A stretch of DNA of 63,965 bases, filler included, from Rhizaria sp. SCN 62-66 (taxonomy: Eukaryota): the NCBI GenBank assembly GCA_001724265.1. It is 3 parts of 3 records of this genome, joined end to end, with 100 filler letters (N's around TTAATTAATTAA, not from the genome) between each part and the next. Parts side by side here need not be neighbours in the genome. Positions count along the whole stretch, not along the records: positions 1 to 26,223 come from MEDY01000422.1; positions 26,324 to 51,534 come from MEDY01000423.1; positions 51,635 to 63,965 come from MEDY01000534.1. The stretch is one strand, 5' to 3'. Numbering within the stretch: position 1 is the stretch's first letter; every line of letters begins with the position of its first letter. The notes under the pieces are model-generated. The model worked only from the letters and a program-made list of their open reading frames with translations, did not search any database and was not told where the DNA came from. Shown here in pieces: positions 1,729 through 63,725 of the stretch. Position numbers and translations under genes: made by a program.

Positions 1729-4700
1729 TCAGTAGGAGAAGTACCCCGCGCGACTCGGCTGCGGCCCCAGTGGACTGGCCCCGAGTGCGCCACCGCCTGC
1801 AAACCCAACGCCGGATCCGTCGTCAAACGACGCGTCGAGCTGCTGCTCCGCGCGCGCCACGGCCGTCACGCTGCGCTTAAAGCACCAGAGCGCGGCGCGG
1901 TCCTCGCCCAGACTAGCTACGGCCACCAGCACGGGCGCGAGAACGGCCAACGCGACGACGACCAGCGCCTCGGTCCTCCCCGCCGCGGCCGCCGCGTCCG
2001 CGCCCGCGTCGGCCCCGGCGGCCGCCGCGGCCGCGGCGGCGTCGGTGGTCCACGCCGAGGCGAGCAGCAGCGCGACAACCGCGGCGACGACTGCCACGCG
2101 CGCCGCGGCGAGCGCGACGAGAAACAGCGGCCGCCCACACCACGTGCGCATGCACACCACGCCCCCGCGCGCGCGCGCCGCACGGGCGCCGCCGCAACAC
2201 AGCGCGCGCCGGACGCGCCGCGCCGCGCGCCGCCACCAAGGCCGGCCCGCGGCGCCGCGGCGCAGGGCCGAGCGCGAGGCCGCCAGCGCGCCCGCGTGCG
2301 AGTCGTTGGCGCGTGCAGTGTAAAACGTGTCGTAACCCCCGCTGCCGCCGCCGCTGTTGTTGCTGCTCGCGGCGAGTCCGCTGCCGCGACCGTAATCACC
2401 ATCCTCGTCGCTGTCGTCGTCGCTATCATCGTCACCGTTGTTGTTGTTGTTTTTGCTGTAGCCCGACTCGCCGTTGCTGTAGAGCGCGTCGGCGGACTTG
2501 AGGTTGCCGATGCTCATGCCGTCCGCGGTGGTCGTGAGCTGCGGGAACGCTGCGGCGACGAGCGCGGGCACGGTCGCGCGGTCATGTGACGCCCGCAGCA
2601 GCGCGAGCGCGGCGAGCACGGCGAGCAGCGACGCCGCAAGCAGCTGCCGGGGCGACAGCGGCGTGAAGTGCTGTGCCGCGGCCACGGCGGCGGCGTCGAG
2701 CGCGGTCGCCGCGGTGACGGCGCGGAGCATTTCGGACCCGGCGGGCGCGGCGAGCAGCGGCGCGAGGTCGAACAGCGCGGAGCCGACGCCAACAACGCCG
2801 CCGACGAGCAGCGGGTGCGCGGCGGCCCAGACGAGCGCGGGGCGGCCGCGGCGCGCGAGGGCGTGTTTGTCGTGCTCTGACGCCGCGTCGACCTGTACGT
2901 ACAGGTACAAAACGGCGAGCATCAGCACGCAGATAGCGCCCACCACGGGCGCCAGCGCGCGCACGAGGGCGCCCGCGGACGTCAGCAGCACAGGGCCCGC
3001 CGCCGCAGCCGCCGCAGCGGTCGCGAGGGCCGCACGCGTCTTAGGGTCGCTGCTGCCGCCGCTGTAGCTAATGGCGGAGTCGCCGACGGCTGCGAGCAGC
3101 GGCGCGGCGCCGTTGGCGTTGGGCACGGCGGTGCCGAGCGGGAGCGCGAACGCGGCGCCCGCGGCAGCCCCCGCGAGGGTGTCGGCGGCGGCGTTGGCGG
3201 CGGTCTTGGCGGCGACGGACTTGACGGCTGGCGCGGCGAGGTCGAGCGACTCGATGCCGTTGCTCGCGGCCGCCGCGCGCACCACGGTCGCCGGCACCGT
3301 CACGAGCGAGGCGACGACCAGCGACGCGAGAAACAGCACCGTGAGCTGGCCGTAGCGCTCGGCCAGGCGCGCCGCGTTCGGGTGCAGGAACCAGCGCTTC
3401 GGGGTCAGCAAGGCGGGCGCCAGCGCCGCGACAGCAGCGAGTCCCGTCGCGAGGGCGAACAGCGCGGCGCGCGGTAGCCACTGTGACGCGGGCAGCGCAA
3501 GCGCGGCGGCGAGCGGCGCGCAGACGGTCAGCTCGGCGGCGACCTGTGTGAGCGCGAACGCACGGCCGACGTCGTGGAGCGCGAGGCGCGCGTACACGGC
3601 CGCTGTCGCGAGTCGCAACAGCAGCAGGGCGGCAGCCAGGTAGGGGAAATACGCCGCCCAGAGCCAGGGCGCGCCCGACGCAAGCACGGCGCGCGCGGGC
3701 ACGCACAGGGCCGCGGCGGCCAGCGGCGCGGCGAGCGCGAGCGCGGTATGCAGCAAGTGTGCGAGGTCAAACGAGGCGAAACGCGTGTAGAGGCCCGCGA
3801 ACGAGGCCCAGGTAAACCAGGAGAATAAGAGCAGCTGCGCGGCGTCCCATGGCGCGTGCAGCGGCGCGGGCAGCAGCGCGTAGGGCGAGGCGCGGGCGAG
3901 CCAGGAGAGAATCGTCGCGAACATCGTCGATGAGGTGTGGTCAGGAGCGTACGCTGCAGGATCAATCGCGTAGCGCAGAGTGAAAACAACGGCGAGGCGG
4001 AGAAAGAGAAACGCAAAGGCAAGGTCGACGACGAGGTCACCCCACTGCAGCCAGCGGCGGTCCGGCTTGGACAGTTGCCCCCAGCGCACGAAGACGGGCG
4101 GGCGCAGGAACGCCGACCGGGCGACGACATCGCGCACATACGCGTATGTCGCGGCAGCCGCGTCGTCGCCGCTCATGCTCGTGTTAAGGCCGCGCGCGGG
4201 CGAGGAGAGCAGCCCGGAGCCGGAGCGGTAGCCGTCGCGGTCCGTGAAGCTCGTGTTGTGGAAGCTGCCGTTAAGCGACGCACCACCGGGCCCTGCGGCG
4301 GCGGCGGCAGCGTGGGTGGCCAAATCCTCGCCCAGCGCCTCCAGACCGCCGTCGTGGCCCTTGTGCAGCGACAGCGAGGTGAGCTGCGGGTCGAGGTTGC
4401 CTTCATAGTCGAGCGCGCCGTCCTCGTCGTCGTCGTCACCGTCCCAGGGCGACGGCGTGGCGGCGGCGGCGGGACGGGGGAGCGCGGATGAGATCTGCGT
4501 GGAGAGGTACAGCGGACTGTGCATCGAGTACAGAGGGTCGCTGTCCAGCGCAGAGGAGGAGGGCAGAGATGAGTAGTCGCCGCCGCCGCCGCCAGAGAGA
4601 CTGCTGCTGCTGTTGCTGTTGCTGCTGTTGTAACCGCCGTAGCCGTAGCCGGATCCGGAGCCTGTGCCGCGGCCGCCGCCAGGAAGACGCGAGGAAGACT

Positions 4701-4749
4701 CGAGCGCGTCCTGGCTCATGTACACGGGGTCATAGCCGAGATGGGACAT
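1729..4749 (-). CDS. LtrA (low temperature requirement A)-family polytopic membrane protein with low-complexity extensions
   Basis: WLQWGDLVVDLAFAF resembles the LtrA WxELFFDLVF motif, and HPNAARLAERYGQLTVLFLASLV resembles HLAERFGLxxIIxLGE. Many hydrophobic helices. First in-frame ATG is at 4749 (the track's start at 4824 is GTG). Stop TGA. Confidence 0.7.
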   Translation of the reverse strand: MSHLGYDPVYMSQDALESSSRLPGGGRGTGSGSGYGYGGYNSSNSNSSSSLSGGGGGDYSSLPSSSALDSDPLYSMHSPLYLSTQISSALPRPAAAATPSPWDGDDDDEDGALDYEGNLDPQLTSLSLHKGHDGGLEALGEDLATHAAAAAAGPGGASLNGSFHNTSFTDRDGYRSGSGLLSSPARGLNTSMSGDDAAAATYAYVRDVVARSAFLRPPVFVRWGQLSKPDRRWLQWGDLVVDLAFAFLFLRLAVVFTLRYAIDPAAYAPDHTSSTMFATILSWLARASPYALLPAPLHAPWDAAQLLLFSWFTWASFAGLYTRFASFDLAHLLHTALALAAPLAAAALCVPARAVLASGAPWLWAAYFPYLAAALLLLRLATAAVYARLALHDVGRAFALTQVAAELTVCAPLAAALALPASQWLPRAALFALATGLAAVAALAPALLTPKRWFLHPNAARLAERYGQLTVLFLASLVVASLVTVPATVVRAAAASNGIESLDLAAPAVKSVAAKTAANAAADTLAGAAAGAAFALPLGTAVPNANGAAPLLAAVGDSAISYSGGSSDPKTRAALATAAAAAAAGPVLLTSAGALVRALAPVVGAICVLMLAVLYLYVQVDAASEHDKHALARRGRPALVWAAAHPLLVGGVVGVGSALFDLAPLLAAPAGSEMLRAVTAATALDAAAVAAAQHFTPLSPRQLLAASLLAVLAALALLRASHDRATVPALVAAAFPQLTTTADGMSIGNLKSADALYSNGESGYSKNNNNNGDDDSDDDSDEDGDYGRGSGLAASSNNSGGGSGGYDTFYTARANDSHAGALAASRSALRRGAAGRPWWRRAARRVRRALCCGGARAARARGGVVCMRTWCGRPLFLVALAAARVAVVAAVVALLLASAWTTDAAAAAAAAGADAGADAAAAAGRTEALVVVALAVLAPVLVAVASLGEDRAALWCFKRSVTAVARAEQQLDASFDDGSGVGFAGGGALGASPLGPQPSRAGYFSY

Positions 4750-5490
4750 CGCGTGAGAGCCAAAGGAACCGACGGGAGACGGGCGCGAGCGCGCGGGAAG
4801 GTGAGCGGGGGCAGGCGGGTCCACAACGCCCCCAGTCAGGTGGTTGGACGGTCCTTGGAAGGGCTGCTGCGGCGCTCAGGTGTGCGGAGATTAAAGATCA
4901 ACAACACCTATACGGTCTTTACAACCGAGCACTACGTACCAAAGTGCGATCAGATAAAAATAAGCGCGGAATCCGGTGAAAATATGGGGGGAAAGATGGG
5001 GAGAAGATTAGCAGGCGCATGCATAAGGGAAGCACGCCCACGACAAAATTAAAGCCAATAAGCTTTGATTAAAGAGATACCGAATAAACATGAAAGACTA
5101 AACACGTTTTTAAATCATGACGCCGAATTCTAGCTTCTATCAACGCTCCCTTGAGGTCATATTCATGATGATGGAATCTCGGGTCGATCGGGGTCGAAGC
5201 GCGTCTTGCCACACCTACACGAACGGTTATCGACTTTGAGTCCATATCAATAGGCATGGCAGACATAGCGATAATTTTTATGCCAATCGTGATTGTTTTA
5301 TGTTATTTGTATTATATCTAAATTTATCTTTCCTTGACGTTGGAAATGTTTCGGTTGACTCAGTCAAAGTCTTCGCGCACACTTAAAGAGCCAAGCTGAA
5401 GGAGAGCGCGCGATGCATTCTCCGCACATTCTCACTCACAACAACTCACTCTCTTGCTTTAACCCTGCTATTCCCTCGGTTTCCGACAGT

Positions 5491-6926
5491 ATGTCTGCTG
5501 CGTGGGGCTCTAAGGCTGAAGTGAAGCCGAGTGTCGACCTCTCCAAGGCCGTGGGCTTCGAGATGGCGCCGCACAAGTTCTCTTACACTGAGCGCGACCT
5601 CATCCTCTACGCGCTGGGCGTCGGTATCGGCAATGAGGACGTTGTCTCCAACAACTGCCTCAAGTTTGCCTACGAGAACCACGAGAACTTCTCCGCGCTG
5701 CCCACTTTCGGCGTCGTGCCGCCCTTTTTCGCCATCGCCGAGGTGATCAACGTGCCCGGCCTTAGCTTCAACCCGATGCACCTGCTACACGGTGAGACTG
5801 AGCTCGTTCTCCACAAGCCCATCCCCACATCTGGCACGCTTGTCAACAAGGCCAAGGTTCGCGCCATCTACGACAAGAAGTCCGGTACGTCCTCACAACC
5901 GCTCCCGCGCTCTGCGCTGCGTCACGATGCGCATCTTGTCCTTGGCCTCGCATATTTCTGTTGAATACTCCCTAATGCAGCATACCTGCGGTGTCATTTT
6001 GAACAGTAGTATCGATTCAACTTGCTTACATCTTATATCTGTGTTTTATTGTCTGTATTGCTGATTTCACTCTCCAGGCGCGTCCATCGTCCTCGACGTC
6101 GACACTCTGTCCGAGTCTGGCGAGCTTATCTTCTCCAACGTCTACACCCTCTTCGTGCGCGGTCTGGGCGGCTTCAACGGCCCCGCTGGTCCCGCTGTCA
6201 AGGAGGCCCCTGTTGTTGTTCCCAAGCGTGCTCCTGACGCTGTTCAGGAGGACGCCACCGACCTTTCCCAGGCTCTTCTCTACCGGTACGCTCACGGCAA
6301 ACACCAAATTGCGCTGAATATATTCATAAACTGTCTGCCTATTGATATAATGAGTAGTACTGTATCATCAATATTATCTAATGTCGTCTTATTTTCCTTG
6401 CTTTTTAATCATTATTTTTTCAAATACAGCCTCTCCGGCGACCTGAACCCGCTTCACGCCGACCCCGGCATGGCCGCTCTCGGCGGCTTCAAGCGCCCCA
6501 TTCTCCACGGTCTCTGCACTTTCGGCATGGCCGGCCGCGCCGTGCTTAAGCACTTCTGCGACAACCAGCCTGAGCGCCTCAAGAACATCAAGGTGCGCTT
6601 ATTCCCCCCAAATCAATTATCCATCAACAAGTATTTGCCCGATTCGTAACAGCGCTCAGCAAACGCGTTCGCTCTCGCTCCTCACATATTTCTCGCACTC
6701 GTTTTTACTTTCCCTTTTGCTATCCAATCCTTTGCTTTTGCGCCCGCGACAGGTCCGCTTCGCGCGCCCCGTGACCCCTGGCGAGGTTCTGCGCACTGAG
6801 ATGTGGCTCGAAGGTACCGACAAGGTCATTTTCCAGACCCGCTCCGTGCAGCAGGGTGGCGCCGTCGTCATTGCCGCCGCCGTGGCCACCATTGCGCCCG
6901 CCGAGAAGATCGTTGCCAAGCTCTGA
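5491..6926 (+). CDS. ECH2: Peroxisomal (R)-specific enoyl-CoA hydratase 2 (MaoC/hotdog fold); exons 5491-5884, 6078-6285, 6430-6592, 6753-6926
   Basis: Splicing three GT-AG introns joins the frames and restores YRLSGDLNPLHADP...PILHGLCTFG (hydratase-2 motif), LLHGE and VRFARPVTPGE. C-terminal AKL is a PTS1 signal. Stop TGA. Confidence 0.93.
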
Positions 6927-7377: not shown

Positions 7378-10286
7378 TTACAGGATGTAGCGCTGAAGGT
7401 CGTGCTTGGCAAACATCTTGCTGGTCTTCTCCTTGACCATCTCCGCAGTGACGGTGAGAATCGCTCCGGGCCCCATCTCTGGCGCCGAGAACGAGAGCTC
7501 CTCAACCACGCATTCAACCACAGCATGCAGCCTGCGTGCGCCGATGTTCTCGAGCGATTTGTTGAGCTCCGCCGCAGTGCGCGCCATCTGCGCCACGGCC
7601 TCATCCTGGAACCGCAGCGCAACGCCCTCCGTGGCGACGAGTGCGCTCTGCTGTGCGAGCAGGTTGTGCACGGGCTCGGTCAAAACGCGGTAGAGCTCGC
7701 GCTCCGTGAGCGCCTCGAGCGTGACGCGGATAGGCAGCCGGCCCTGGAGCTCCGGCAGCAGCGCCGAGGGCTTCACCTTGTGGAACGCGCCCGACGCGAT
7801 AAACAGAATGTGGTCCGTCTTGACGTTACCGTGCGGCGTCGACACCACCGAGCCCTCGATGATCGGAAGCAGATCGCGCTGCACGCCCTCATCGGACGCG
7901 TCGGCGCCGGTGCGGTTGGCGTCGGGCGCGACACACACTTTGTCGATCTCGTCAATGAACACCACGCCAGACTCCTCCACCGCGCGCATCGCCTCCATAG
8001 TCACGTCTTCGTTCGCCGCTGCCGCGACCAGGGCCTCGCCCGCCGCGGACTCGAATGCGCGGCGCGCCTCGCGGACCGAGACCAAGACGCGGCGCACGAG
8101 CGGGGATCCGCCGCCAGTCGAGCCCGCCGCGGCGCTGGAGTAGCCCGGCGCGCGGTAGCCGAGGGACGGAGCCGTCGAGAGCAACGGCGACTGCGTTTGG
8201 AGCAACGACGACTGCGACAACTGCGACGGCGATGACGACGCTGCAGCAGTGCTGCTTGTGGTCGTGGTTGCGCCTGTGTGGCCCGAGAACAGCGACCAGC
8301 CGCCGTTGCCGTTACCAACACTCGCGCTCGCGGGTGCAGCGCTTGCTGTGGCGGCAGCGGCGGCGGCGGCGGCGGCGGCGCGCTGCTTGGCGTGCGCGTG
8401 CGCCGTCATCATCGCAGTCGCCTCCGCGGCCGACAACGTCGCCTGTAACCCCGGAGTCGGCGCGCCCCCGCCTTCAACACTGCCGCCGCCACTGCTGCTA
8501 TGACTAGCGCTGGCGAGCGCGGCGGCGCTGTGCAGCTCGCGGAGGTCGCGCACCGGAAGTTCCAGCTCGACCGTGGCGTTGTCAAGCTCGCCGGCCTCGA
8601 GGAAACCGCGGTACGCAGAGCGAGTCTCTGCATCGGCGTCTGGCGCGAACAGACGCGACAGCACAAAGTCATGCGCCTCAGCGCGCGCGCGCTGCAGCGC
8701 GGCCTGCTGGCGCTGCTGCTTGATGAGCGCGACCCCTGCCTCAGCGAGGTCCTTGATGATAGTCTCGACATCGCGGCCGTGGAAGCCTGTCTCGGTGAAC
8801 TTGGTCGCCTCGACCTTGACAAACGGCGCGCCCGCGAGCTTGGCCAGGCGCCGCGCAATCTCCGTCTTGCCGCAGCCCGTGGGGCCGATCATGAGGATGT
8901 TCTTGGGCACCACGTCGGTCTGCATCGCCTCCGGGAGCAGCCGCCGCCGCCAGCGGTTGCGCAATGCGATCGCCACAGCTCGCTTGGCCGCGGACTGGCC
9001 GATGACGTAGCTGTCGAGCGCGGCGACGACCTCGCGCGGGGTCAGCGCGGGCGCGCCAGCGGCGCCGAGCAGAGGCGCGGCGCGGGCGGGGCCGGAGGCG
9101 GGCGTGACGGCCGCGGGCGCAGTCGCTGTGACGGACGACGACGATGATGATGATGACGAGCGCGTGTCACTGCGGGCAGGCGCACCGCCGCCACCGCCGC
9201 CACCGCCGCCGGTGTTGCCGCTGCTGTTGCTCCCGCTAGAACTGCTCGTGAATGTGGCTGTTCCTGTGGTTGAGCTGGGGTCGGCGCGGACTGCAGCAGT
9301 CGCAACGGCCGCGGCAGCGGCTGTGTGCGTCCGGCTCAGGACCGTCGCCGAGGCCAGATAGGGGCCAAACCAGCGGTGTTTAAACAGCGACGGCTGCGGC
9401 GACGGCGAAGTGGATGCAGACTCAGAACCGTCAGCATTCGGCCTGTTTGCCGCGGTTGCGGCGTTTGAAGCGAGCCCAGCAGTCGCGGGCGCTGCGGCGG
9501 CCACTGCGCGCAGCTGCGACAGCGGTGCGCCAATGACAAACCCGCCTGGCAAGCGGTGTTGCGTTTGCTGCTGCTGCGCCTGGGCAAGCGCGTGTGTGTT
9601 GAGACCACTGTTGCTGTGTAGGAGCGCTGTGGAGGTGGACAGCGACGCGCGAGAAGGGAACTTGGGGAAGCCGCCGCGCGGGGGCGCGGTCAGCTGAGCC
9701 TCGCCGTTCAGCGCAGCCGCCAGTGCAAGGGTCGCCGCGCCGGGGCCCGCGGCGGCGCTCGCGTGGGCCGCGGTGGCAGGGGCAGCAAGAGAGGATGAGG
9801 AGGACGAGGAGGAGGAGGAGCTCAGAGAAGGGGTGCGGTGGTGGCTGTGCAGCGAATCTCCGAGCGAGTGGTAGTGGGCGAGGAGCGAGTCGTCAGAGCT
9901 CGGCACGGGGCCCACAAACAGCGTAGACGTGGGAGTGCCGCGTGAGTGCCAGCCTGTGGAGCTGGAAGGAGATGAAAACGGACGCAGAGCAACGGCAGGG
10001 AGTAGCACGGCTAACAGGCCTCCTGCCAGCGAGGCGGGAGACCCACTGCAGAATCAAGAGCGAGATGCGCAAATTTTAGAAATAAAAATTGCTTTAAGAG
10101 AAATAATTACTACACTTCTATCAGAAAACGTTGTTATGCATTTCTCACAAGGTCAGGAAGCCCTGCTTAGCATGCAGATACGGTCTTGTGAAAAACACGT
10201 GCGACCCATCACACCCGGGCAAGGAAAAAATGCAGCGATGCATGCGATACGTACCGCGAAAGAACGCGCTGTTTTAGCAGCAACAT
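7378..10286 (-). CDS. HslU: Mitochondrial HslU/ClpY AAA+ ATPase subunit of the HslUV protease; exons 10286-10255 and 10045-7378
   Basis: LTPREVVAALDSYVIGQ..AKRAVAIALRNRWRR, Walker A GPTGCGKTE, VEATKFTE, Walker B VFIDEIDK, GVQRDLLP, ELQGRLP, NIGARRL and the conserved C-terminus DLQRYIL-TAA. The proposed exon 1 (ATG 10286, GTACGT donor, phase 2, CAG acceptor at 10046) gives the presequence-like N-terminus MLLLKQRVLSRGSPASLAGG. Exon 1 is inferred. Confidence 0.93.
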
Positions 10287-12752: not shown

Positions 12753-13867
12753 ATGTGCAAGATTACCGAAGACCCCAACACGCCCAAGTACACCGTCGAG
12801 CAGGTGCGCGCGGTTCTCCTGGACGAGACGGCGCCGATCGCCAAGCGTACCCGCTGTGCCTTCATGCTGCGTCAAATCGGCTCCGAAGCCGCGATGGACG
12901 CGCTGGCTGAGGCGATGCGTTCCCCGTCTGTGCTCATCGGCCACGAGGTTGCCTTCGTGCTGGGTCAGATGCAGAACCGCTACATCCAGCCCACGCTTGT
13001 GCGCGTCGTGCAGGACACGACGTACCACCCCGTGGTGCGCCACGAAGTCGCCGAGGCCCTGGGCGCGCTGGCGGACCCCGAATCGATCCCGCTGCTCGAG
13101 ACGCTGTGCGCGGACCCCTGCGTTGAGGTTGCTCACACTGCGCAGATTGCGGTTGAGCGCGTGCGGTTCATCAAGGCGAACCCGACGTGGGACGCCGAGT
13201 ACCACTCGCTCTACCACTGTGTCGACCCGGCCCCGCCCGTCGAGGAGGACGACGTCGGAAAGCTCCAGACGATGCTGACGGACGAGTCGCTCTCGCTCTT
13301 CCAGCGGTACCGCGCGATGTTCAAGTTGCGCGACATCAACACCAAGGAGGCCGTGCTCGCGCTCGCCGAGGGATTCAAGGCCGCGTCGCCCGTGTTGCGC
13401 CACGAGATTGCCTACGTGTTCGGGCAGATCGTCCACCCCGCCTCCGCCGACTCGCTCAAGGTACGGATATATCTCTCTATTTTATGCACTAAAACGATAT
13501 CAAGATTAATATCAAGTTCTCTTGAGACACAAGACGATTGAATCGTGAACTGTTTTCTTAACGTGAACGTCACAACTTCATTACTCACGACACACGCGCA
13601 CTGTATTTGCTCTTGTTCCTTGCATAGGTCGTGATCGCCGATAAGAGCGAGCACGCGATGGTGCGCCACGAGGCCGCCGAGGCGCTGGGTGCGATCGCCG
13701 GTGACAGCTGCCACCCGGAGGAGCCCGAGATCCAGTCAGTTCTCGCGGTGCTCAAGGAGTTCCAGGCTGATGACGACCGGATCGTGGCTGAGAGCTGCGA
13801 TGTCGCGCTCGATATTCACGACTACTGGCAGAACGACGAGGAGGTCGACACGAACCTCGACGCGTAA
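12753..13867 (+). CDS. DOHH: Deoxyhypusine hydroxylase; exons 12753-13460 and 13628-13867
   Basis: Four HEAT-like HE motifs (LIGHEVAFVLGQ, VVRHEVAEALGA, VLRHEIAYVFGQ, MVRHEAAEALGAI), the VDPAPP linker, LFQRYRAMFKLR and VAESCDVALD. One GT-AG intron. Stop TAA. Confidence 0.95.
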
Positions 13868-15141: not shown

Positions 15142-15176
<35 letters not shown>

Positions 15177-18800: not shown

Positions 18801-18843
<43 letters not shown>

Positions 18844-26223: not shown

Positions 26224-26323
26224 NNNNNNNNNNNNNNNNNNNNNNNNNNNNNNNNNNNNNNNNNNNNTTAATTAATTAANNNNNNNNNNNNNNNNNNNNN
26301 NNNNNNNNNNNNNNNNNNNNNNN
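26224..26323. other. Artificial contig linker (N44-TTAATTAATTAA-N44)
   Basis: Exactly 100 nt with a six-frame stop cassette in the centre; identical to the second linker. Confidence 0.97.
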
Positions 26324-32638: not shown

Positions 32639-32669
<31 letters not shown>

Positions 32670-51534: not shown

Positions 51535-51634
51535 NNNNNNNNNNNNNNNNNNNNNNNNNNNNNNNNNNNNNNNNNNNNTTAATTAATTAANNNNNNNNNN
51601 NNNNNNNNNNNNNNNNNNNNNNNNNNNNNNNNNN
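51535..51634. other. Artificial contig linker (N44-TTAATTAATTAA-N44)
   Basis: Same 100-nt structure as 26224-26323. Confidence 0.97.
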
Positions 51635-52074
51635 TCAAAAATAATGACCTGATCATTCGTTCTGTCGTGCCGAAATATTTTTCAAGTTGACTGGGGGGCG
51701 GCCCACGGAAAGAGTTTGCGGACGGGACTGTAAATTGAACGTTTGTTCGGCAACAGTCTATGCGTACCTCTGTACAATTTCCAAAGTACATTCGACTGTA
51801 TCTTTTAGTGTAGAAAATGTAAGACATGTTCTCCTACAATTTAAAATGTACAGTACACGCTTTTGACGAATATTTGTTGCGTATTTTATAATGCACTGAA
51901 CTGCGTCGAGTGAAGGACTCGTGACCACGAACTCAGAAGCCCATTTGACTTTTTTTTTACTACAAAGTACCATGCGTCAAAATAGACTTGGTTTGTCCAA
52001 TATAGTGTGTATTTTTTTCAATTTAAACATACTTAGATATTAAAGTCTCAAAAACATAGCAGTATCTCAATTAT

Positions 52075-54101
52075 TTAGACCTCAATGACCTCATCCTCCT
52101 CCTCATCATCCCTCTTCCTCTGACTCGTCTTCTTCGCACTCGCGCTGCCGCCGGTCTTGGCCTTGCTGCCCGCCGCCGTCCTGCCGGCCTTCTTGGCCGC
52201 GGCGGCCTCGCGCAGCGCAGCCTTCTCCGCGGCGCGCTGCAGCCCCTTCTCGCGCGCGCGCTGCTCCCGCTCGCCGCGCCGCGCCTCCCTCTCGCTCACT
52301 GTCGCGCCCGCGCTGCCCACGCCCGCGCCCGCGGTGGCGCTGCTGCTGCTGCTGCCACTGCCAGCGGTGGCGGCGCTGCCGAGCGCGAGGGTGGCGGGGG
52401 ACCAGGGGATCTTGGAGACGGAGTGCACCGAGTCGGAGTAGCTGCCGATGTAGAGCGAGTTCTTGTAGTACACTGCCTGCGAATGATGGGGAAACGAATA
52501 TCGCAAAAGATTCAAGTGAGCTCAATGTGAGTACCAAATACAGTTGTCCAAGTCAAGTTTACATTTCAAGTGAATCAACGTGTAATAAGTCAGTTAACCA
52601 TTCTGAGAAATCAACTCGTTATCGAGTCTGGACAAGCGAGAATAAATCTAAGTGCTCACAGTCTTCAGGATACCATGAAGGCACGAGAATCAAGATAGTG
52701 AAAGACGCGTACCTCGCTGGCAGACCTGACCTTGCCGGACGTGTCGACGATGACCTGCGCGACCTCGGCCCCCTCTGCACTGGACACTGGCGGCTTGACC
52801 GCAGCGACGATCGTAGCGCCGCCGCCGAGTGCCTCGACGAAAGGCGCGATGTACTTGACGGGGATGGCCTTGGCAAGCAGCTTGCGCAGCCACGGCCGCG
52901 GGGCAGTGAAGTCGAACAGCGAGAAGGACGATGCGGACCGCAGCACAGTGCCCGTCACGAGCAGCAGGTCGTTGCCGCTGGCGAAGTACTGGTTCACGTC
53001 GCCGCTCTCGGTCTGGTCCGGCGCGCCGCCGGCAGTGGCGTACTCGCTGGCCCAGCGGATGTTGTCGGGCAGCACGGGCAGGTTCTCGATGTAGACGCCC
53101 GGAATGCCTTTTTTCGGTCCCGACAGCGGGATCTTGACGAGGCGGGCGCGGTTGAGCTCAGCGACGATGAGGTAGCTCCCGTCCTCTGAGAGTACGATGC
53201 CGTTGGGGAAGCTGAGCGAGTTGCGCTTGGTGAAGTAAGTCGCCTTGCGCGTCTTGGGGTCGTAGACGCCGACGCCGCCGTTCTTGCCACTCTCGAGGAT
53301 CTCGAGCATGTAGTCACGCAGACTGTGCTTGTTGCTCGAGATGGTGAAGTAGATCTTGCCGTCCGCGGCGACAGCGACGCTGTTGGGGAAGAGCAGCTCC
53401 TCGCTCTGCTTCGAGAGCGAGTCGTGCACCGTGGTGGCGATGGCCTGGAGCTGGCCCGACGCCGGGTCCATCGCGAGCAGCCCGAAGTAGGCCGCCGCGA
53501 TGATGACGAAGCCGTTGGGGTGGTAGGCCATACCCAGCGCGCGGCCGCAGATGTGCAGCGTCTCATACGTGCCGCACGGCAGCGGGAGCGCCTTGTTCGG
53601 GTCGCCGATCGTCGTCATGGGCTCGGGCGCCGAGAGCGGGGACGCGATGGAGCCGCGGAGGATCTTGCCGTCGGCGGCGCCGAAGTAGGCGTAGTCGCCC
53701 TGGGGAGCGAAGACTACCGACTCGGGACCCTTGTTTGCGCGGCCGCGCCACGCGGGCTGCGCCTTGGCCAGGTCAACCGTGTTGACGACCGGGAACGCGG
53801 CCCCCGCGCCCGCGCCCGTGCGCGCGCCGGCGCTGGAGGAGAGAGAGGGCGGGGAGGCGAGGCGGAAGGCCACCGGGGCGATGGGGGACGGTGAGACGTA
53901 GACGTAGGCCGCGATGGCAACGAGGATGCAGAGGATGAGCTGCAGGGCGCGCGCGGAGGAGTCCGATGAGGACTGAGAGGCGTCGCTGGTCGCCGTGGCA
54001 GTCGCAGTTTTGGCGTTCTTGGTGTTCGACGCGGTGGAGCTGCTGGAGCTGGAGCTGGAGTCGCTGCTGTCCCGAGGGACGGAGACGTTGCTGCGGGCCA
54101 T
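52075..54101 (-). CDS. Strictosidine-synthase-like / APMAP-family beta-propeller protein with N-terminal membrane anchor; exons 54101-52713 and 52476-52075
   Basis: TM helix ALQLILCILVAIAAYVYV; GPESVVF; ICGRALGM; YFGLL; FPNSVAVAADGKIYFT.SS; LSFPNGIVLSED; ENLPVLPDNIR. Splicing the GTACGC...CAG intron gives SEAVYYKNSLYIGS. Stop TAA. Confidence 0.88.
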
Positions 54102-54944
54102 GGGTAAGGTGGCGGGTAACGCGCGGGTGGCAGGCACAGCGAGGTGTGCTGCTGCTGCTTCTTCTTGTGTTACAGCTGGTGCTGCTGTCGAGTTGCTTGA
54201 GAAGATTGATAGAGAGCGAAGAGAGTCTAGATAGAGAAGTCTGCCAGGAAGGAAGATCGATCGTTGGGAAAAAACAAATTTGGATGGTAAATCTCGAGGA
54301 AAAATAAGTACAGAATCTCCACGTATCACTGCTACCGTGCGGATGTACGACGTGTTGGATCAAAGTGAAGTTGTGCTGACTCGCTCTCCGATCCGCTGGA
54401 CCAGCGCTGCCTGTGCCCACCGGCCGGTGCCCCTTGCCGCAGGCCCAGAAAAAGAGGTACAACGCAGTAATGCGTTCATTTCATAAGACAATTGGCAAGT
54501 GTTTCTATATTTCAGTATCTGCTGAATTTGAAAGTTTTATTCGTATCTGTATTGACGATCATCGGCGATCATAGTTTTGATTGCCTTTCATACCAACCCT
54601 CCACACTCCTTGCCTCGTGTGCATTCCCCTCTCACTCGCGCACCTGTCCTGCTCTGTCCTCAGTCCCCTGCCGCGCACCCTCGCGCTCTCTGACAGCTGC
54701 GTGGCTTATTGCTGGCGTTACACCAACATTAAACCCCGCGCGCTCGCGTGTGAGGCCCTCAGAGCACTGCACTAAAAGAGAGCGACGCTCCCTCAGCAGT
54801 TTCTGTTCCCTCCTCTCTCTTTTTTCTCCCCGCTGCTCCCCCAAACAGCAACGCTCCGAACCGCATCAACAGCGGCATTCACTAACCCTAGGTAGTAAAT
54901 CAGCGTAATCCAATAGTTATATTGCGTTTTGTAACTTTTCAAGG

Positions 54945-57900
54945 ATGGTATTCGCGGACGATGACTCCCGCCTCGTCCTCCATCGCGGTCTGCCGCTGCT
55001 TATCGCACTGACCGTCGCGGCCTCCGGCGGCACGCTCGCCATCTCCGTCGCTACCCTCAACGCGTGTCCGACGCTGTCAACATGCGTTATTGCCGTCTCC
55101 TCGCTGCTGCTGGCGGCCTCGCTCGCTTGTGAGCACCTGAGGCACCGGAACAAGAGTCTCCACGACAACGCCAATCTCGTTCTCTGGATCATCTGCGCCG
55201 TGCTGTCCCTTCTCGCGCCGCTCGCCGCGCTCGGCTACGCACTCTACGGCATCTCGCTGCTGGTTGACGCGTCCTCGCTGGACATCCCCGCCGCGGCCGC
55301 CGCGCTTGGGGCTGAGTCGCCGTGCGCACAAGCCCCTCTTTTTCCAGTCGCCATCCTCGCCATCGTGCTCACGGTCATCGCCGCTGTCGTGTACCTGCCC
55401 ACCTCGCTCTGGGTCATCTTCTCGCGCATGGTGTTCATGAAGCCCGCGCTGTGGTGGTCCGACTACGATGCCCACATAAACGACATCCGCTGGGTCCGCT
55501 CGGCTCTTGGTGACCTGGTCCCAGTTCTCGTGCTCCGCTCCGGATTGCAGTCGCAGGTGCGTCCCTCATTAGATATATATATCTTGCTTGTCATTTATAT
55601 ATTATTAACTCAAATTAAACGCGCTGTACAATTACTAAAACGCTGAATTGAAGCTATCGACGTTCATTGAACGCGCTAACGTATGGAAAATGATCTCTTC
55701 GGAACTGGTCGCTCACGTATTCTAACGCGACCTACTGTTGGGTTGTTTCCTTCAACTCCTCGCAGTCGCCCCCCGCGCTGACTTTGCTGTACGCGCACGG
55801 CAACGCGGCGGACCTGGGCGTGATGATCGGCGGCCTCACGCACCTGGCGCGCCACTGCCGCTGCGACGTCGTCGTCTTCGACTACCCGGGCTACGGCCTC
55901 GCCAACCGGTCCGTCCTGACGGAGCAGCGCGTGTATGCGGCCGCCGAGGCCGTGGTGCGCGCGATCCTTACCCCGACCGACAAGTCCGTGCTGCTGCCGC
56001 CCAATGCGCCGCCGCTGGGGCCGAAGCTCGTTCTCTACGGCCGCTCGCTGGGCACCGCTGTGTGCACCTATCTGGCCGCGCTGCTCAGCGACGCTGCCGC
56101 TTACGAGGAGGCGCGGGCGCGCGGCGAGCGGGCCGAGCGGTTTGCGCGCCGCGTCGTGCTCAAACACATCAGGCTCGCGCTTGGCACTTATGCCAATGCC
56201 AACAACAACGCTGCCGCGGACGGCACCGCCGCTGTCGCTACCGGTGCCGCTAACGCCAGCGCGAATGCGAGTGCAGGTGCGGGTGGTGCGAAGCCAGCGA
56301 GCGCGACAGTGCGCATCCCCCCGTTCCACCCGCCGTACCCGCAGCCGCGCTACATCGGCGGGCTGCCCATCCGCTCCCCGCGCGCGCTCATCGGCCTCAT
56401 CCTCGACTCCCCGTTCCTGTCTGTCCTCCGCACAAAGGTCCCCAACGTCTGTCTGGGCCCGCCCGACGAGGGCCGCCGCGCCGCCGCGTCGCGCCCCGCC
56501 GCGAACGGGAAGCCGGCGGGGGCGTCGGCGGGCGGCGTCGAGGAGGACTGGGGCGCCATCGGCCGACAGGGCAGGGAGGCGTGGCGGGCCTATGTCGCCG
56601 CGCTGGACGATAAGTTAAGCCGCATGGCCGTTGAGGCAGTGGCGAAGCAAATGGCGCTTCCGATGCCGCCGCTTGCAAACAACAACAGTAGCATCAACTC
56701 GTCGAACATCGCGAGCGCGAGTGGTGCGGTTGCTGCTGCGGCTGCGAGCCCCAGCAGCAACAGTAACGCGGGTGCGAAGAAGATCTCGATGATCAACTTG
56801 TACGACATCACTCTTCCTTCTAACTTGAACAATAACAGCAACAGCAATAGTAATTCTAGCAACAGCGAGTCCGCGCTCAGCACCCCCTTAGACTGCGGTG
56901 TAAGTACCACGTACGCGCTGGACCCCTTCGGCTTCCCCCCGCTGCCGCTCACGACGCCGCGCCAGCCCACGTCAACCGCGCTCACGGTTACTGCCCCAGC
57001 TCCGGCCTCCCGCGCCGCGACGGCCGCCGCGTCCGCCGCCGCCGCGGGCGCCCTTGCCGCCAGCTCCAGCAGCGCCGGCGGCGGCGCTGCGGCCGGCTCC
57101 GGCAGCGCCGCGGGCAGCGCGGGGTGCTTCGGGCGCGTCTTCAGCTGCGGCCGCCGCGGCGCCAGCGCGAGCGAGGTGTGTCTGAATCGCAAGACGGACA
57201 CTGTCGCCGCGGTGCCCACGGCCACGTGCCGCGTCAGCATCCCCGTCGAGACGCTCACGCGCTGGGGCGCGCCCGCAGCCGGCGGCGGCAAGCAGGCGGC
57301 GGCCGCGGTGGCGGGGTCGGGCACAGCCACGCTCGCGCCGCCCGAGAGCGCTATTATCGGCAACAATAACAACAACAGCAGCAGTAACAGTAATGAGTCG
57401 ACTGAGGCGAAGAGCAGTGGCGCTGACGCCCTTAGCAACAGCGCGGCCCACAGTCAGCAGATGAAGCCTCTGTCGATCATGACGGACGAAGAAGCCGCTG
57501 ACTCGCTTGTCGGCATCAAAGCCAATGCCAACATGAGTGTGGTAAACAACGCGAGCGGCCACAGCGCCAACACCGACGCCAGCACCAGCACCACCCTCAC
57601 CCTCGACCCAGCCGCCGCCGCGGCGGCTGCCGACAGCGACGCCGTCGACACCGAGCTCGTCGGCCCCCACGGCTCTGCCTCGTGCGCGTACGTGCTGAGC
57701 ACGGCCGCGGTGGCGTCGAGCCGACTGCCGCAGTCGTGGCGCTGCGACATGTTCTGCACTGTCGACCGCATCGCGCGCGTGCGCGTGCCCGTGCTCATCT
57801 CGCACGGGCTGCGCGACACGGTCGTCCCGCCGCACCACGCGCGCCGCCTCCACGCGCTGCTGCGGCCCGACTGCGCTTACCCGCCCGCGTGGCTGCCCGA

Positions 57901-59443
57901 CAAGGGCCACAACGACATGCCCAAGTTCTGGATCTACAACGTCGCCGCCGAGCGCGACCCCGGGCAGCGCAGGCTGCTGGAGCAAAAAAACAAGGATAAC
58001 ACCGAGTGCATCTTCGGGCTGCGGCGCTTCCTGAAGCACTGTGTCGCCAAGGGGGAGGCCAAAGATAGGGAGTGGGGCGAGGACGAGGTCGAGGAAGTCC
58101 TTACTAAGTACGGGGTCAGCGTCAGGGAAGAGAGTTTGAGCAACCTCAGCCCTCTGGACAGCGCCTGCAAAACCCCCGTCGACACCAACAACGCAGCCAA
58201 CGCGAACAATGCTAATGCTGCTGTTCCTGCTGCTGAAGGCAAGAAACTCACCGATGCAAACGCAGCCGACAACAGCACTGCGAATGCGACTGGTGCTGGC
58301 GCTGGGTCCACTGCTGTTGTTGTCTGCGGCGGCGAGTTCCGCGGCCCCGTGTCGCCTCTGGTGGCGGCAGAGCAGGCCGCCGAGGCCGCGGCGGCCGCGG
58401 GTGCCGTGACCAGAGGCATGCCGCCGTCGGCCTCGCTCACCCTCACGATGACGCCCTACAACAACTACACGTGCACCACGAGCACGAGCGCTGGCTCCAG
58501 CAGCGTCAACGCCGCCGCCGGCGCTGGCGCTGGAGCCGCCGGTGCGAGAGGTGACAGCAACAACAACTGCAGCAGCAGCGTGAGCAGCGCTAAGAACGCC
58601 GGCGCCGGTGCAGGCACGTGCGGCCACGCTGCGACTGTGAACGTGGGCGGCGGCTTGTCTTTCATCGCGCGCGCGTACGGCGAGGACGGGCGGTCGGACC
58701 TTTACGCGCCGCCCCCGCCTCTCCATAGTACCGGTGCGAACGGCAGCAATGGCGGTCACGGCCACAACGGGTGCAACGACAACGACGTCAACTTGATGAC
58801 GCCTCTGGGCTCGCCTGTGCTGAGTCCGAACCCCACCAACGGCAACAACGGGAGTCTAGGCACTGGCGGTGCGAGCGCCGGCTTTGCGTCGAGCGCTGCT
58901 GTTGTTCCGCTCTCGCTCTCACTGCCGTCTTCCCAGCAGCAGGGCAGCAGTGCCAGCACAGGGGCGAACGCCGCTCCCAGCAGTCACGGCAACGCTGCGG
59001 GGAACAACCTGTCGCTGACGTCGTCCACCGTGTCGCTGCGCAGCATCCCCCTTGCCTTTACCACCACCAACACCGCCAGCAACGCGAGCATTGCGAACAA
59101 CAGCAGCAACAGCACGAGCAACGGCGGCGGTAACACAAACACGGTGACAGTGAACTCTGGCGCGAGCAACATGTCGCGGCCTGTCTCTGCTGTTTCCGTC
59201 TCCGGCGGCGGCAACACCGCTGCCGTCGCTAACAGCAGCGGCACCGGCGGTGGCAACAACTCCGGCCGGGTTGCGCCGAGCGACGTCGTGACAACTGTGA
59301 CGACGGGAACGTCTGGCGCGGCGCACACCCGCAACTCGAGCTCGAGCAACCACAGCAGCATCCTGCTGCCGGTGTCCGTGCCCTCGCCGTCGCCCTCTGC
59401 CGCGAACACAAACGCTAACAACAATAATGCCGAGAATAAGTGA
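54945..59443 (+). CDS. ABHD17-like alpha/beta-hydrolase with N-terminal TM helices and large insertions; exons 54945-55556 and 55766-59443
   Basis: TLLYAHGNAADLG; FDYPGYG; nucleophile LYGRSLG; ILDSPFLSVLR; DMF..VDRI.RVRVPVLISHGLRDTVVP..H; GHNDM. The Ser-Asp-His triad is complete. Phase-0 intron. Stop TGA. Confidence 0.85.
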
Positions 59444-59940
59444 GGTGCTTATTGTGACTTGAAGTGCAGTGGCATGTCTTGAAAGCGTTTGTTTAAGTTT
59501 TCTGTTGACGGTTTTGTATTCTAAAAGTAGAATGATAGATTTTGATGATAGGTTTTGTTATTGTGAAACAAGTTTACTTTAGCTCGTCTCTTTTGTTCAC
59601 TTGTTTCGTTTGTTTCCTTCCTGCACACACCTTCCTGCACACACGTCTTACGCTGTGTGCTTATCCTTTCTGAAATGCCTACTTTTTATCAACTCAATAA
59701 CATAATTATCATTTTCTGTGTGACTTATCTTGATGTGACATACTTAATACAATAGATCAATATAACTTCTTTTTTTTTTACTCGCTGCCATTCGCCACGT
59801 GTTCTGAGCTGTTTTCAAGTTGCATCGACAACACCAAGAGGCTCGATGTTGATCTAAATGCGTGTCATCGTGTTTCTCCGTTGCTAAAGCATCAAAGAAC
59901 ACATCTATAAAGATACTTTATTGCTGTTTTTGATAATCAA

Positions 59941-62900
59941 ATGGCGCTGCTGCGGCTGCTGGTCTACGTCCTCGCTTTGCTCGGGGAAGAAGCAGTCATG
60001 GCAGCGACTTTGATGTTCGGCGCTGCCAATTTCACACACATCCCATTCCACGCATATCCTATGCTTGGGACTCACGTACGTTGAATTCAAGTATAAATTC
60101 TATGCATTTATGTTTTTAAACAAGTCTAACTGACCAGACAATCGTATCTAGCGACAAATCAACTTGAATCTTGACTTGAACAAGTAGCGATCGTCACATT
60201 TCTCATCGCCACTCTTCGAGGCTCTATAATCTCGTGTGTGCTATAGAATACGGCGACAAGTTACTTGCCTGAAAGTTTAATCAACAACTGGGCTAAGACA
60301 CAAACTCTTACAGTGACATCCCAGCTCGATCTTGGTGTGCGAAGCCTCAACCTGCGCCCCTCGCTCGAAAAGTCAGGCCGCTTGCTTTCCCGGCACGGGC
60401 CCGTCCTCGTCCCTGCACCGCTCTCCGAGCTCATCAACGAAGCTGTTGCGTGGGCACGGGAGCATCCGCTTGAGCTCGTCTTGCTGCACATTGCAACGTG
60501 CACAGGTCCCGCCTCGAAGGAAAGCGCCACCAACTCACACGCACGCGACGACGATCACAGCCATGCAGTGATACACTCCTCAAGCGTTGCCACCAGTGCA
60601 GCTGCAATCACCGCCGCGTTCGCTGCACTGCCGACCAACGCCCCGGGCACTGCTGCAACGCGCGCTGTGGCAGTGAGGAGCGCAGTCGCCAGCGCAGAGA
60701 GCGGTGCAGGGCAGTGCTGGGAGCGCACGCGTGCTCTGTTGCTTGCAGCAGGTGTGCTGCAGTTGCCGTATTGCGTGCCAATAACGTCTTCAGTTGCAGA
60801 TGTGTGGCAGGCAGCAACACGGCTGTCTGCGCACCACAAAGGAGCTGTGGTTGCAGTTGAAAAACACTGCGTTGAGGTGCGTTCCATAAAAGTGGAAGAA
60901 AAGCTACTTTGTATATTGTGTTATCGTAAAATCTAATTGTATTTCTGCGTGTTTGTTTTGTTGTTAAGTTATGACAGGAAAACTGGGATCCAACTGTAGA
61001 ATGCTCGGGTGTTAGTACTTTTAACGAAGACCACGCCGACGATAGCAGCGACTCTGACTCTGACGCAAATAGCGCAAACAGTGGCGCAAACGCAGTGCTG
61101 CGCGGGCTCGCTTCGGCTGGACGCGGATTAACATCCGCAGCAGCGCATACACGTGCTGCAGTCACCGCGGCTGGCGCAGGTATAAGCAACCTATTCCGCC
61201 GTGGGCGCCATGAAGGTGATAGTGCCGAGACTGGTGACAACGGAGCAAGGCAACCGCCGTCACCGCCTCCGATGCCGTTAACAATGACAGATAGTTCCGA
61301 TTCAGAATTAGCAAGTGAGGCACCACCATCGCCGTTGCCGTCTCTGACGCTTTCGTCATCAGTCCCCTCATCTTCGCAATCCCTACTGTTCGTCCCACAG
61401 ACAATATTGCGACGACGTTCTCAGTCGGCATTGTCACGCACGCCGCCGGCTATGCGTCTGCAAGCATGTAATCCCGGCTCTCACCCTCATATTGTCACAG
61501 CAACCTCTATGCCTACACAAAACACTGGCAATGCAAACAGTCTTTCTTTTGGTGCTGCAAGCGCAATCTCTGCCTCAGCAGCCGCTGGTGCAATGCTGCA
61601 CTTAGGGCCCGCCTCTGGGTCAATTCCGGCGTTGCCGCCAGCAGCAACATCGCCTCCATTATTATTGCCAACCGCCGCAGCTCCACTACCGGCAAGTACT
61701 TCATTGGAATCTGTTGCGCTAACATCAGTTGCAGCTTTACTTGCAACAAGGATGTCGCCGTTGCCGTCACTACCATTACTGCCGACATCCGTGCCAATAG
61801 CATCGAGAGCAGCAACAGAAACTGAAACAGCACCTCGCACTGTATCAACATCAGATGAAACTGTGGCAATAAACAAACCGGAAGTCGCGGGTAGAGTGCC
61901 GCTCGCGTTTGTTGCACACGAAATCGCCGACGCGACGAGTCGCAACGACAATATTACAGCTGGTGTTGCGAGTACTCCTAAAGATATCGTTATTGTCGCC
62001 ACAGAAGGAATTACGGACATCCCTACCCCATTAATTCCATCGTTAAGGTCTGCAACAGCAACAAGCCCTATTTCCTCAAATGACAATGGAAGCTTTAGTC
62101 CGAGGTCAAGTCCAAGCTCTGGTTCATCCATCTCCTCCGATCCGGACAGCTGGCCGCAAGACACCCGCTTTGGGGAGTTTTGCTGTTACGACACAGTCAG
62201 GGCGGCGCGGCTGGAGCCGTGGCGCCGCTACTATAGCTACTGGAACGCGCTTGGAGAAGGAGGCAGGCGTGTACCGTTAATCTTGACTAATCCTCTTGAA
62301 GCAACAAAAATAGCACGTGAGCAACTTGCACCTACAGCAAGTGAGGCTGGAAATAGTAGCAACCTCGGCAATAGCAACGAAGGTGTCAATGCGCGGAGTG
62401 TGGGCACATATGCACGTGATATTATTGTTGTGACAAACGCTGATGTTGGGAATCGTGGACGATTTGTTACCAGGGACAGGTCTAATGCAGGTACCAATTC
62501 GAATCGGCATACTGTTCGAGGCAGGTTTGTCTGGCAGCACCCCTCACAACGACTCCAGGCAACAGCGATTGAAGTGACAACAACAGAAGCAGTACCGCCA
62601 ACGCGAGTAAACGCAAGTACAGCCACAGATAGTTCAGAAAGATTCACAACACTTGCAATTACAGTGTCTCCAGCTGTACATCGCATTCGTTCTATTCTTT
62701 TACCAGATATCGCAGGCGCATCTGACATAAATCAAGTCACATCGCATGCCAAACTGGGTCTTGTCAGACAATCACTTCCACTGTGGTTTGTGACACTGCT
62801 GTATCCTCTACAGCTAACAGCAGCGCCAGGGCAACGCGATCACAGTCTAAGCACGCTTGCTGATGTCAAGAACTTTGTCGAAGATGTCATTACCCCCCGC

Positions 62901-63725
62901 TCACTGGCGCGCCCTATCTCTGAAAGTGCAGACTTAACAAACACCTTTATTTTAGTCTCAAATAGTATAAATAGGACAAGCAATGGAACTGAGTCATCTA
63001 TAGGTGTGAGCTCGGCAATTCGAAGCAACGACAGTGGCGAAAACAAGGAGACAGAGGATGACATTGCAAGAGCGATAGCCAAAGCAAAAGCCAAGGCAAA
63101 CGGGCGTCGCCTTGTTATGTCACAAGGTCACTGGCAGTACTCTACTACGAGTGTTGTGCTGGGAACACTGCGGCAATCATCAATCGTAAAAGATCAACGG
63201 CGCAGCGGCTTGAATAAAGTGCTTGCTGACAAGCTAGATCGTGCAACGCGCGCTGCAGAGGAAGCAGTGGAAGTTAGCAAGACATATGGTATTGTTTCAG
63301 TGGCTGCAAGCAACAGCGGTAGTGGTGGAATAACTCCGGGCACGAGTGATGTTCGTGTTAAGTGGGATGGGGGGGGGGGATTTGGCAGTGCTGGTTGGGT
63401 TACCGTTGATGATGTCGAGAGTAACGGCTCTGATGTTGCAGTCGCACTCCTCAAGAGGGCTGAGCTGTTGCAGAAACGGGGTCTTGCAATGCTGCCAAAG
63501 GAATACTTACTTGAACAAGAAAATATTGTTCCGAGTCACAATGCAACAGAAAACAATGATAAAAACGATTACGGGCGTGACAGCAGCAGTGATAGCAATC
63601 GCGTCAGTGACCGCGCCCGCACACCCAGCAGCAGTCTCGCTATGACTACGACGCAAGATGATCTCCGTGTCAGAGGTGTTTTCCAGAGTAATGAATGGCC
63701 CAAGAGCGGCATAATTATAATCTAA
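59941..63725 (+). CDS. PI-PLC X-domain-like phosphodiesterase with possible signal peptide and large insertions; exons 59941-60075, 60247-60876, 60978-63725
   Basis: Spliced product reads MLGTH|NTATSY...WAKTQ..TVTSQLDLGVRSLNLRP...HG...EHPLELVLL, the PI-PLC-X/PLCXD pattern. Two phase-0 GT-AG introns join the frames. Stop TAA. Confidence 0.72.

Follow-up and report, generated by a model that had tools for sequence, protein, structure and literature searches.

TAG as nearly the only in-frame stop in a divergent gene family of an uncultured wastewater eukaryote: possible inefficient termination at UAG

Does UAG still end translation in the organism from which this DNA derives? The window analysed here (63,965 bases, deposited under the name Rhizaria sp. 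SCN 62-66) consists of three contigs (1-26223, 26324-51534 and 51635-63965) joined by the spacers N44-TTAATTAATTAA-N44 at 26224-26323 and 51535-51634; as it is a concatenation, features are not to be read across the joints. A first-pass annotation proposed that UAG is a rare sense codon, uncoupled from UAA and UGA, and pointed to three TAGs inside continuous coding frames. All three are present at the sites, on the strands and in the contexts that it gave: AAS*WTL at 29856-29858 on the plus strand (...cctcgTAG|TGGACC) and, on the minus strand, ALL*RMN at 50918-50920 (CALL*RMN with one more residue) and PLG*TAA at 50396-50398 (VPLG*TAAS). The latter two are the sole lesions of the C-terminal 502 codons of a gene (49931-51439, minus strand, TGA end) that belongs to a large and divergent family. 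The uncoupling of UAG from the other stops draws its support from 34 family loci of a related organism, not from the three window sites. We suggest that, in the lineage comprising the window organism and this relative, UAG is not an efficient terminator and gets translated, with UAA and UGA ending genes; we would give this reading an even chance.

In-frame stops within the family

The window copy has 36 homologues (30-51% identity); full-length members measure about 700-880 amino acids and possess a conserved, Cys-rich C-terminal domain. The family alignment, used to scan metagenome contigs of JGI, located 34 family loci (112.8 kb), whose common contig-name prefix assigns them to a single source metagenome. 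The organism of that metagenome is a relative of the window organism: its HslU protein (P0039) shows 75% identity to the window HslU in their best local alignment, or 63% across the 539 columns of the tree. When 11 family proteins were aligned by tblastn with the 34 loci and the window copy, and stops were counted inside the high-scoring segment pairs of the best query, we found 22 TAGs in 16 of the 34 loci and two in the window copy, against one TAA and three TGAs. A refined count with all 36 homologues, in which near-self pairs were dropped and sites required at least eight homologues, covers 11,263 codon sites and gives 24 TAGs, one TAA and three TGAs. Single-base mutation of the family codons would be expected to yield TAG, TAA and TGA in shares of 0.48-0.49, 0.26-0.31 and 0.20-0.25; the probability of at least 24 TAGs among 28 stops is 4-5e-5, and it is unchanged when the count is limited to variable columns. 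The excess belongs to the reading frame: in both off-frames of the same sequences no stop is rarer than TAG (+1: TAG 60, TAA 64, TGA 247; +2: TAG 71, TAA 155, TGA 458).

Other lesions are few. A single unbroken frame runs through 15 of the 16 TAG-bearing loci, the exception being L025, and frame changes occur in only five of the 35 sequences (L019, L025, L028, L030 and L031). TAA or TGA is carried by copies that are plainly dead (L028, L030, L031 and L033), the first three of which also have frameshifts. The TAGs are not randomly placed either: the top residue accounts for a fraction of 0.37 at TAG sites (n=25) and 0.56 at the sense sites, which number 12,693 (p=2.5e-4 by the Mann-Whitney test), and three of the 25 TAG sites fall in columns that are at least 70% conserved, compared to 36% of all sites. 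TAG columns are less conserved even than those of copy-specific missense residues (0.47), and a Monte Carlo comparison with random nonsense sites expects 0.51 where 0.37 is observed (P=0.005). The gap fraction is 0.21 at TAG sites and 0.06 elsewhere, which locates them in variable, indel-prone linkers. A gene-killing mutation has no reason to avoid conserved columns, and the TAGs therefore behave like tolerated substitutions. Pseudogene decay makes three predictions (stop proportions, accompanying frameshifts and random placement), none of which describes these sequences. The excess of one stop type, the scarcity of other lesions and the avoidance of conserved columns together imply that selection removes TAA, TGA and frameshifts from the family but passes TAG; inefficient termination at UAG is the simplest cause of such selection.

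Individual loci illustrate the pattern. Some members are fused C-terminally to a ubiquitin domain (L034, 1-804; L020, 2-961), and when the TAG of L034 is read as X, the complete Pfam ubiquitin domain (1-72 of 72, E=8e-26) spans it, with Peptidase_S74, an intramolecular chaperone domain, following in frame. The database gene call P0160 (1,150 amino acids), which holds a tandem duplication of the family C-terminal domain, terminates exactly at this TAG, so that the frame comprises about 1,318 codons with the TAG as its sole break; the ubiquitin domain of L020 has Gln at the corresponding position. L008 reads YS[TAG]FRPV[TGA] where its paralogs read SFRPV[TGA], and L003 has three TAGs. The ratios of non-synonymous to synonymous changes on single branches do not tell TAG-bearing from intact copies: those of L003 (1.17), L005 (1.45) and L006 (0.71) resemble that of the uninterrupted L007 (1.6), and the branches are long and mostly predate the TAGs. 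In other assemblies TAGs immediately precede the calls P0004, P0006, P0007 and P0014 and form the ends of P0005, P0025 and P0027, and exact TAG-bounded sequences recur on up to seven contigs; as the same breaks appear in other assemblies, the TAGs are reproducible. Standard gene callers split the family genes at TAG, with the consequence that protein catalogues built from samples of this kind hold truncated halves.

Two simple sources of the TAGs were considered and rejected. C>T changes resembling repeat-induced point mutation (CpA>TpA) do not account for precursors that include AAG, TTG, GAG and TCG, and unspliced short introns do not account for TAGs that replace one residue with no indel (L006, L008, L015, L017, L020, L025, L029 and window 50396).

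As to the window copy, the TAGs at 50396 and 50918 fit the family pattern. The column of the former is Gln in 16 of 36 homologue alignments. The latter stands in a variable column in which L001 of the relative also has TAG (L001:952) and the other paralogs mostly have GAG. We note that this column (QLxALL*) is thus common to two species; about 0.75 coincidences are expected among 28 sites, and we therefore do not take the match as shared ancestry. The first-pass description of the gene as telomere-broken is correct: its frame directly adjoins a telomere-type repeat, about ten copies of the 9-nt unit TTATTAGGG, whose G-rich strand runs on the plus strand from 51440 to the contig end at 51534. 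From the lengths of its homologues, the copy lacks about 250-370 N-terminal residues. The addition of the repeat inside a coding frame looks like chromosome healing within the gene. The TTATTAGGG motif has been reported as novel, in Aspergillus transcarpathicus, in the TeloBase paper (PMC10767889). A scan of the genome contig collection for telomeres of this type returned six matches, each of them an unrelated 9-nt repeat in the interior of an AT-rich bacterial contig. The direct evidence from the window's own organism, namely one truncated copy with two TAGs and no TAG among 15 gene ends, is thin.

Gene ends, ordinary genes and the residue at TAG sites

The first-pass annotation listed 14 gene ends, none of them TAG, and all 14 stops are as it gave them: TAA at 7378, 13867, 19526, 19892, 25506, 48306, 52075 and 63725, and TGA at 1729, 6926, 10943, 33593, 49931 and 59443. 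With the TGA at 52665, which ends a strictosidine-synthase-like gene, the window has eight TAA and seven TGA ends and no TAG (0/15). The non-family genes on the 34 loci end in TAA five times and in TGA twice (TAG 0/7), which brings the pooled ordinary ends to 13 TAA, nine TGA and 0/22 TAG, a small sample. Family gene ends were not counted as independent evidence on terminators. Both remaining codons are true stops, as had been claimed: HslU ends in DLQRYIL followed by TAA, at the same endpoint as the HslU of the relative, and the MaoC-type hydratase ends in AKL followed by TGA. Within the window alone, the 15 ends and the three in-frame TAGs are not beyond chance; lineage-wide, the absence of TAG among 22 ordinary ends is suggestive.

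A number of observations weigh against inefficient termination at UAG, and they have to be set beside the family data. The terminator gap has P=0.007 if the usual share of TAG is 20%, and only about 0.1 if it is 10%. Under the standard code, TAG is the first stop after the conserved C-terminal motif in six of 29 family copies. Ordinary genes contain no TAG at all, with zero in the 12,765 training codons of the window genes and zero within the coding sequence of the long frames that lie outside the family on the loci of the relative (about 7,800 codons; the single TAG of L010 sits before the first Met and hence outside the coding sequence), or about 23,000 non-family codons overall. TAG makes up about 0.2% of family codons; ATA, the least used of the sense codons, shows no more than about a 2.7-fold difference between family and ordinary genes. 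In these ordinary genes no in-frame UAG was found at a position conserved for one residue, and the single case in a conserved domain, the ubiquitin domain of L034, aligns with Gln in L020. Nearly all of the positive evidence comes from the relative, whose HslU is 63-75% identical, and the window copy, being truncated by a telomere, cannot be a normal gene. Finally, L029 is a true pseudogene, even though all of its stops are TAG: its three TAGs stand where Lys, Leu and Lys are conserved, and its branch has 15 non-synonymous changes to one synonymous change.

The amino-acid signal also weighs against this reading. In a Codetta-like analysis of 22 TAG sites the log-odds lie below zero whichever residue is tried (-14 at best, -31 for Gln), whereas in calibration with 22-site samples, self hits included, the tested sense codons recover their own residue in 20 of 20 trials and average log-odds between +22 and +92; the exception is ATA, with 12 of 20 trials and a mean of +12. 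Without self hits, the best mean BLOSUM62 score is 0.21 (Ser) and that of Gln is -0.03; the null at random positions is -0.07 with a 95th percentile of 0.34, so the TAG sites equal the null, while ten of the 11 real codons tested score 1.3-4.5 and ATA scores 0.6. The closest-paralog codons at TAG sites are GAG, CAG, AAG, TTG, TCG, TAT and even CGC. The first-pass suggestion that UAG encodes Gln or Leu is not established, as no single residue fits the TAG sites; Gln as the inserted residue is the best lead only.

How UAG might be read can be outlined in two ways. It could be decoded by a rare tRNA with the anticodon CUA, for which a Gln type would be the best lead; alternatively, near-cognate readthrough might occur, aided by an eRF1 with weakened recognition of UAG. 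In either case we suppose that decoding would be costly or imprecise, and a costly decoding would purge TAG from ordinary genes and let it last only under weak constraint. Such a state may represent the capture of UAG at an early or still ambiguous point and not a completed reassignment; we do not propose a settled reassignment because there is no amino-acid signal and ordinary genes have no TAG. ARAGORN detects no tRNA in the window, and the sole tRNA on the 34 loci is a tRNA-Gly(GCC) on the minus strand of L031 (2992-3065), just upstream of a decayed family copy; the 177 kb in total are too little to judge. No eRF1 gene is present in the window or on the 34 loci. A more specific account, in which an unplaced wastewater lineage is midway in UAG capture, with UAG cleared from gene ends and re-entering first a family associated with B-box and ubiquitin domains, is in our judgement possible but doubtful. 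The B-box assignment refers to the N-terminal parts of P0013 and P0025, where the zinc-finger match is weak (E about 1e-3) and falls short of the Pfam cut-off. The ESM Atlas returned only weak TRIM/B-box leads for the family (scores up to 0.79), and profile scans of the genome and viral contig collections found no relatives of it.

Other explanations and known systems

Much of what weighs against inefficient UAG termination would follow directly from the standard code, with a large family in which many copies were inactivated recently and carry ordinary nonsense TAGs, a TAG at 29856 that is intronic or in the 5' untranslated region, and a terminator gap due to a small sample or to bias. No residue fits the TAG sites, and the closest-paralog codons are spread over single-step neighbours of TAG (GAG, CAG, AAG, TTG, TCG and TAT). 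L029 is decayed, L028, L030, L031 and L033 contain TGA or TAA, and the window copy is cut by a telomere; the ordinary codons are free of TAG, and six of 29 is a normal share for TAG as the first stop after the C-terminal motif. The make-up of the lesions is harder to reconcile with this account. The stops stand at 24:1:3 where 48:27:25 is expected (P about 5e-5), and the inferred precursors could reach TAG only through changes of several kinds (A>T, T>A, G>T, C>A and C>T), such that no single mutation class suffices. The TAG-bearing loci are frameshift-free in all but one of 16 cases, their TAGs shun conserved columns, and the ubiquitin and Peptidase_S74 domains are intact around and after the TAG of L034. 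On balance we consider nonsense mutation under the standard code unlikely, if by no means far-fetched.

Recoding could instead be confined to the family, with UAG a normal stop for most genes and with readthrough that is programmed or depends on conditions, or split N- and C-terminal products restarted after the TAG, so that TAG acts as a regulatory brake on single copies. The contrast between about 0.2% TAG in family codons and none elsewhere would be accounted for, as would the location of the TAGs in variable linkers, and database calls of downstream halves do start a few codons past TAGs. We judge this improbable, since the 28 TAGs have no common sequence context, their positions differ between copies, split genes leave unexplained both the use of TAG alone and the several TAGs per copy (three in L003), and the lack of TAG at the 22 ordinary ends would have no cause. 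Assembly or sequencing errors in repeated genes could also create false TAGs, and the loci are indeed copies of a repeated gene on short contigs from a metagenome. The same TAG-bounded calls, however, recur across several independent assemblies and sources, JGI, ENA and Logan among them, the TAG at 29856 is identical in a second sample, and errors would not favour a trinucleotide that is rarest or joint-rarest among off-frame stops; an artefact is scarcely credible.

Nuclear codes that uncouple UAG from UAA are very rare. To our knowledge, the described codes that split the two are finished reassignments, which tell little of how the meaning shifts, and we know of no documented eukaryotic nuclear example of an ambiguous intermediate or codon-capture stage. 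One report (PMC5304391) describes reassignment of UAG only, to Gln in Iotanema spirale and to Leu in the rhizarian exLh; the terminators are UAA (56) and UGA (15) in exLh and UAA (104) and UGA (15) in I. spirale, and UAG is frequent in conserved housekeeping genes, with 384 occurrences in 71 genes and 204 in 126, and occupies conserved Leu or Gln positions. The lineage studied here is like these two in that only UAA and UGA terminators were seen (here 13 TAA and nine TGA) and in-frame stops are nearly all UAG. It is unlike them in that TAG is missing from ordinary genes, is found in one fast-evolving family and in variable columns, and matches no single residue. Ciliates with a changed UAG use it abundantly in frame, and one of them, Oligohymenophorea sp. 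PL0344, reportedly reads UAA as Lys and UAG as Glu. Independent reassignments of UAG separate from UAA are described for the phyllopharyngean ciliates (PMC11687900) and for PL0344 (PMC10553269). The organism here falls by HslU in no named group.

Two further systems offer partial parallels. The variant surface glycoprotein (VSG) archives of trypanosomes are pseudogene-rich subtelomeric families with frameshifts and all three stops. Like them, the family is large and divergent, has one telomere-adjacent copy and includes dead copies (L028, L029, L030 and L031); unlike theirs, its interruptions are nearly TAG-only, lack frameshifts and lie in variable columns. In filamentous ascomycetes, A-to-I editing of mRNA turns premature UAG into UGG (Trp), and a full-length protein results. 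The genes here are similarly interrupted by TAG only, but Trp has nearly the lowest weight at aligned TAG positions (0.08 in the weighted profile), and the HslU relatives, by sequence, place the organism outside the fungi. The main texts of the literature searched contain no nuclear UAG change in a stramenopile, a stramenopile-like organism or an activated-sludge eukaryote, and no gene family interrupted by TAG only. If inefficient termination at UAG is true, the lineage would show a transition state in which genes no longer end in UAG, a family under weak constraint tolerates it in frame and core genes exclude it, a natural case of what theory predicts as the "ambiguous intermediate / codon capture" stage; if confirmed, the lineage would be a new one for code changes, and the change itself, though of a known kind, would be unusual and partial. 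Bioreactor and activated-sludge metagenomes contain enough of the organism for its assembly, and RNA libraries of such samples exist, so that the tRNA, eRF1 and the inserted residue are testable.

Gene structure and origin of the window

The TAG at 29856-29858 is directly 5' of the point at which the coding signal of gene B begins, and it was not counted as evidence. Gene B is an open frame of 1,244 codons (29859-33593, plus strand, TGA end) that is coding-like from its first codon; its first in-frame ATG is only at 30528, and the stretch 29859-30527 is coding-like with no ATG. By codon usage the 84 codons upstream of 29856 score -0.52 and -0.30 and the downstream codons +0.16, that is, the signal begins exactly after the TAG and is absent before it. 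The view that this TAG interrupts a continuous coding frame becomes doubtful, as the upstream codons have no coding signal. The TAG is probably just outside a coding exon, at a 5' intron or untranslated-region boundary, because the coding signal starts after it and because HslU (below) has a comparable ATG-less extension, bounded by a TGA, that a predicted 5' intron explains. Gene models complicate this placement: in-phase first-exon models under the standard code need atypical donors (GTGTGTG, GTGTGTT, GTGTGCA or GTGAGTG) and imply introns of 577-1,577 nt, compared to 143-209 nt in known introns, whereas the typical donor GTACGC at 29550 gives one model, with a 200-nt intron, that leaves the TAG in frame. 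A second sample (X4) has the TAG unchanged, in a contig that matches 28092-30131 and whose one differing letter fits the X4 difference at 28534. No contig from the RNA libraries covers 29856 among the 32 of 1,865 matched pieces listed (26324-46323). The listed read joints were rejected as splice junctions; their sides of up to 26 letters, GC-rich and of low complexity, are not credible. A word search gave no homologues of gene B, probably swamped by low-complexity words, and an exhaustive phmmer search of 1.84 billion representatives gave zero matches, self included, probably owing to a composition filter (the protein is Ala-rich).

The first-pass statement that no TAA, TGA or frameshift occurs inside the frames holds only once introns are allowed for: the deoxyhypusine-hydroxylase-like (DOHH) gene has one, the hydratase has three, and the HslU frame is bounded by a TGA. 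The DOHH gene, which has HEAT/PBS-lyase repeats, contains a GT..AG intron at 13461-13627 on the plus strand (AAG|GTACGG...GCATAG|GTC); as this intron ends in TAG, splice acceptors can read TAG, and by analogy ...cgTAG|TGG at 29856 may be an acceptor as well. The multi-exon gene for the MaoC-type hydratase-like protein (5413-6926, plus strand) uses the donors GTACGT, GTACGC and GTGCGC, with CAG acceptors. The five introns seen have the common donor GT(A/G)CG and lengths of 143-209 nt.

HslU is encoded on the minus strand, and its conserved N-terminal region extends upstream of the first in-frame ATG (8925), in an open frame of 376 codons with no ATG that is bounded upstream by the TGA at 10054-10056. 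We suggest a gene composed of exon 2 (7378-10045), a predicted 5' intron of 209 nt (10046-10254, GTACGT...ctgcag) and a predicted exon 1 of 32 nt (10255-10286, encoding MLLLKQRVLS plus CG, with the ATG at 10286), an arrangement that makes the bounding TGA intronic. The spliced product would start MLLLKQRVLSR-GSPASL..., which matches the N-terminus of the relative's protein, MLFSRQRAVAR. The prokaryote-style database call (P0038, 876 amino acids) misses the real start. At its N-terminus the protein is extended by about 310 residues ahead of the conserved domain, which itself contains a long insert of low complexity; extension and insert are both partly kept in P0039 (e.g. FPKFPSR[AS]SLS). The ESM Atlas returned only HslU clusters for it. 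The nearest named proteins are from stramenopiles (52-62% in best local alignments), and in a quick tree the window and its relative form a long-branched pair outside every named group. Bioreactor, wastewater and activated-sludge metagenome runs contain 0.66-0.99 of the words sampled from 26324-36323, and the source is therefore an uncultured eukaryote.

GC content varies between about 0.49 and 0.69 in 4-kb bins of the window, the spacers being AT-rich. Codon bias is strong, with a G+C content at third codon positions of 0.76 over the training codons, and the codon-usage model trained on these window genes cannot score the weakly biased family. A (TTG)n run at 1-95, on the minus strand, encodes a poly-Gln tract in an open frame (3-938) that runs off the contig; every Gln codon in it is CAA, whereas the genome elsewhere favours CAG. 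A single open frame (34399-48306, plus strand) has 4,635 codons, a signal-peptide-like N-terminus, no TAG and a TAA end, and contigs of an RNA library (X6) are identical to parts of it.

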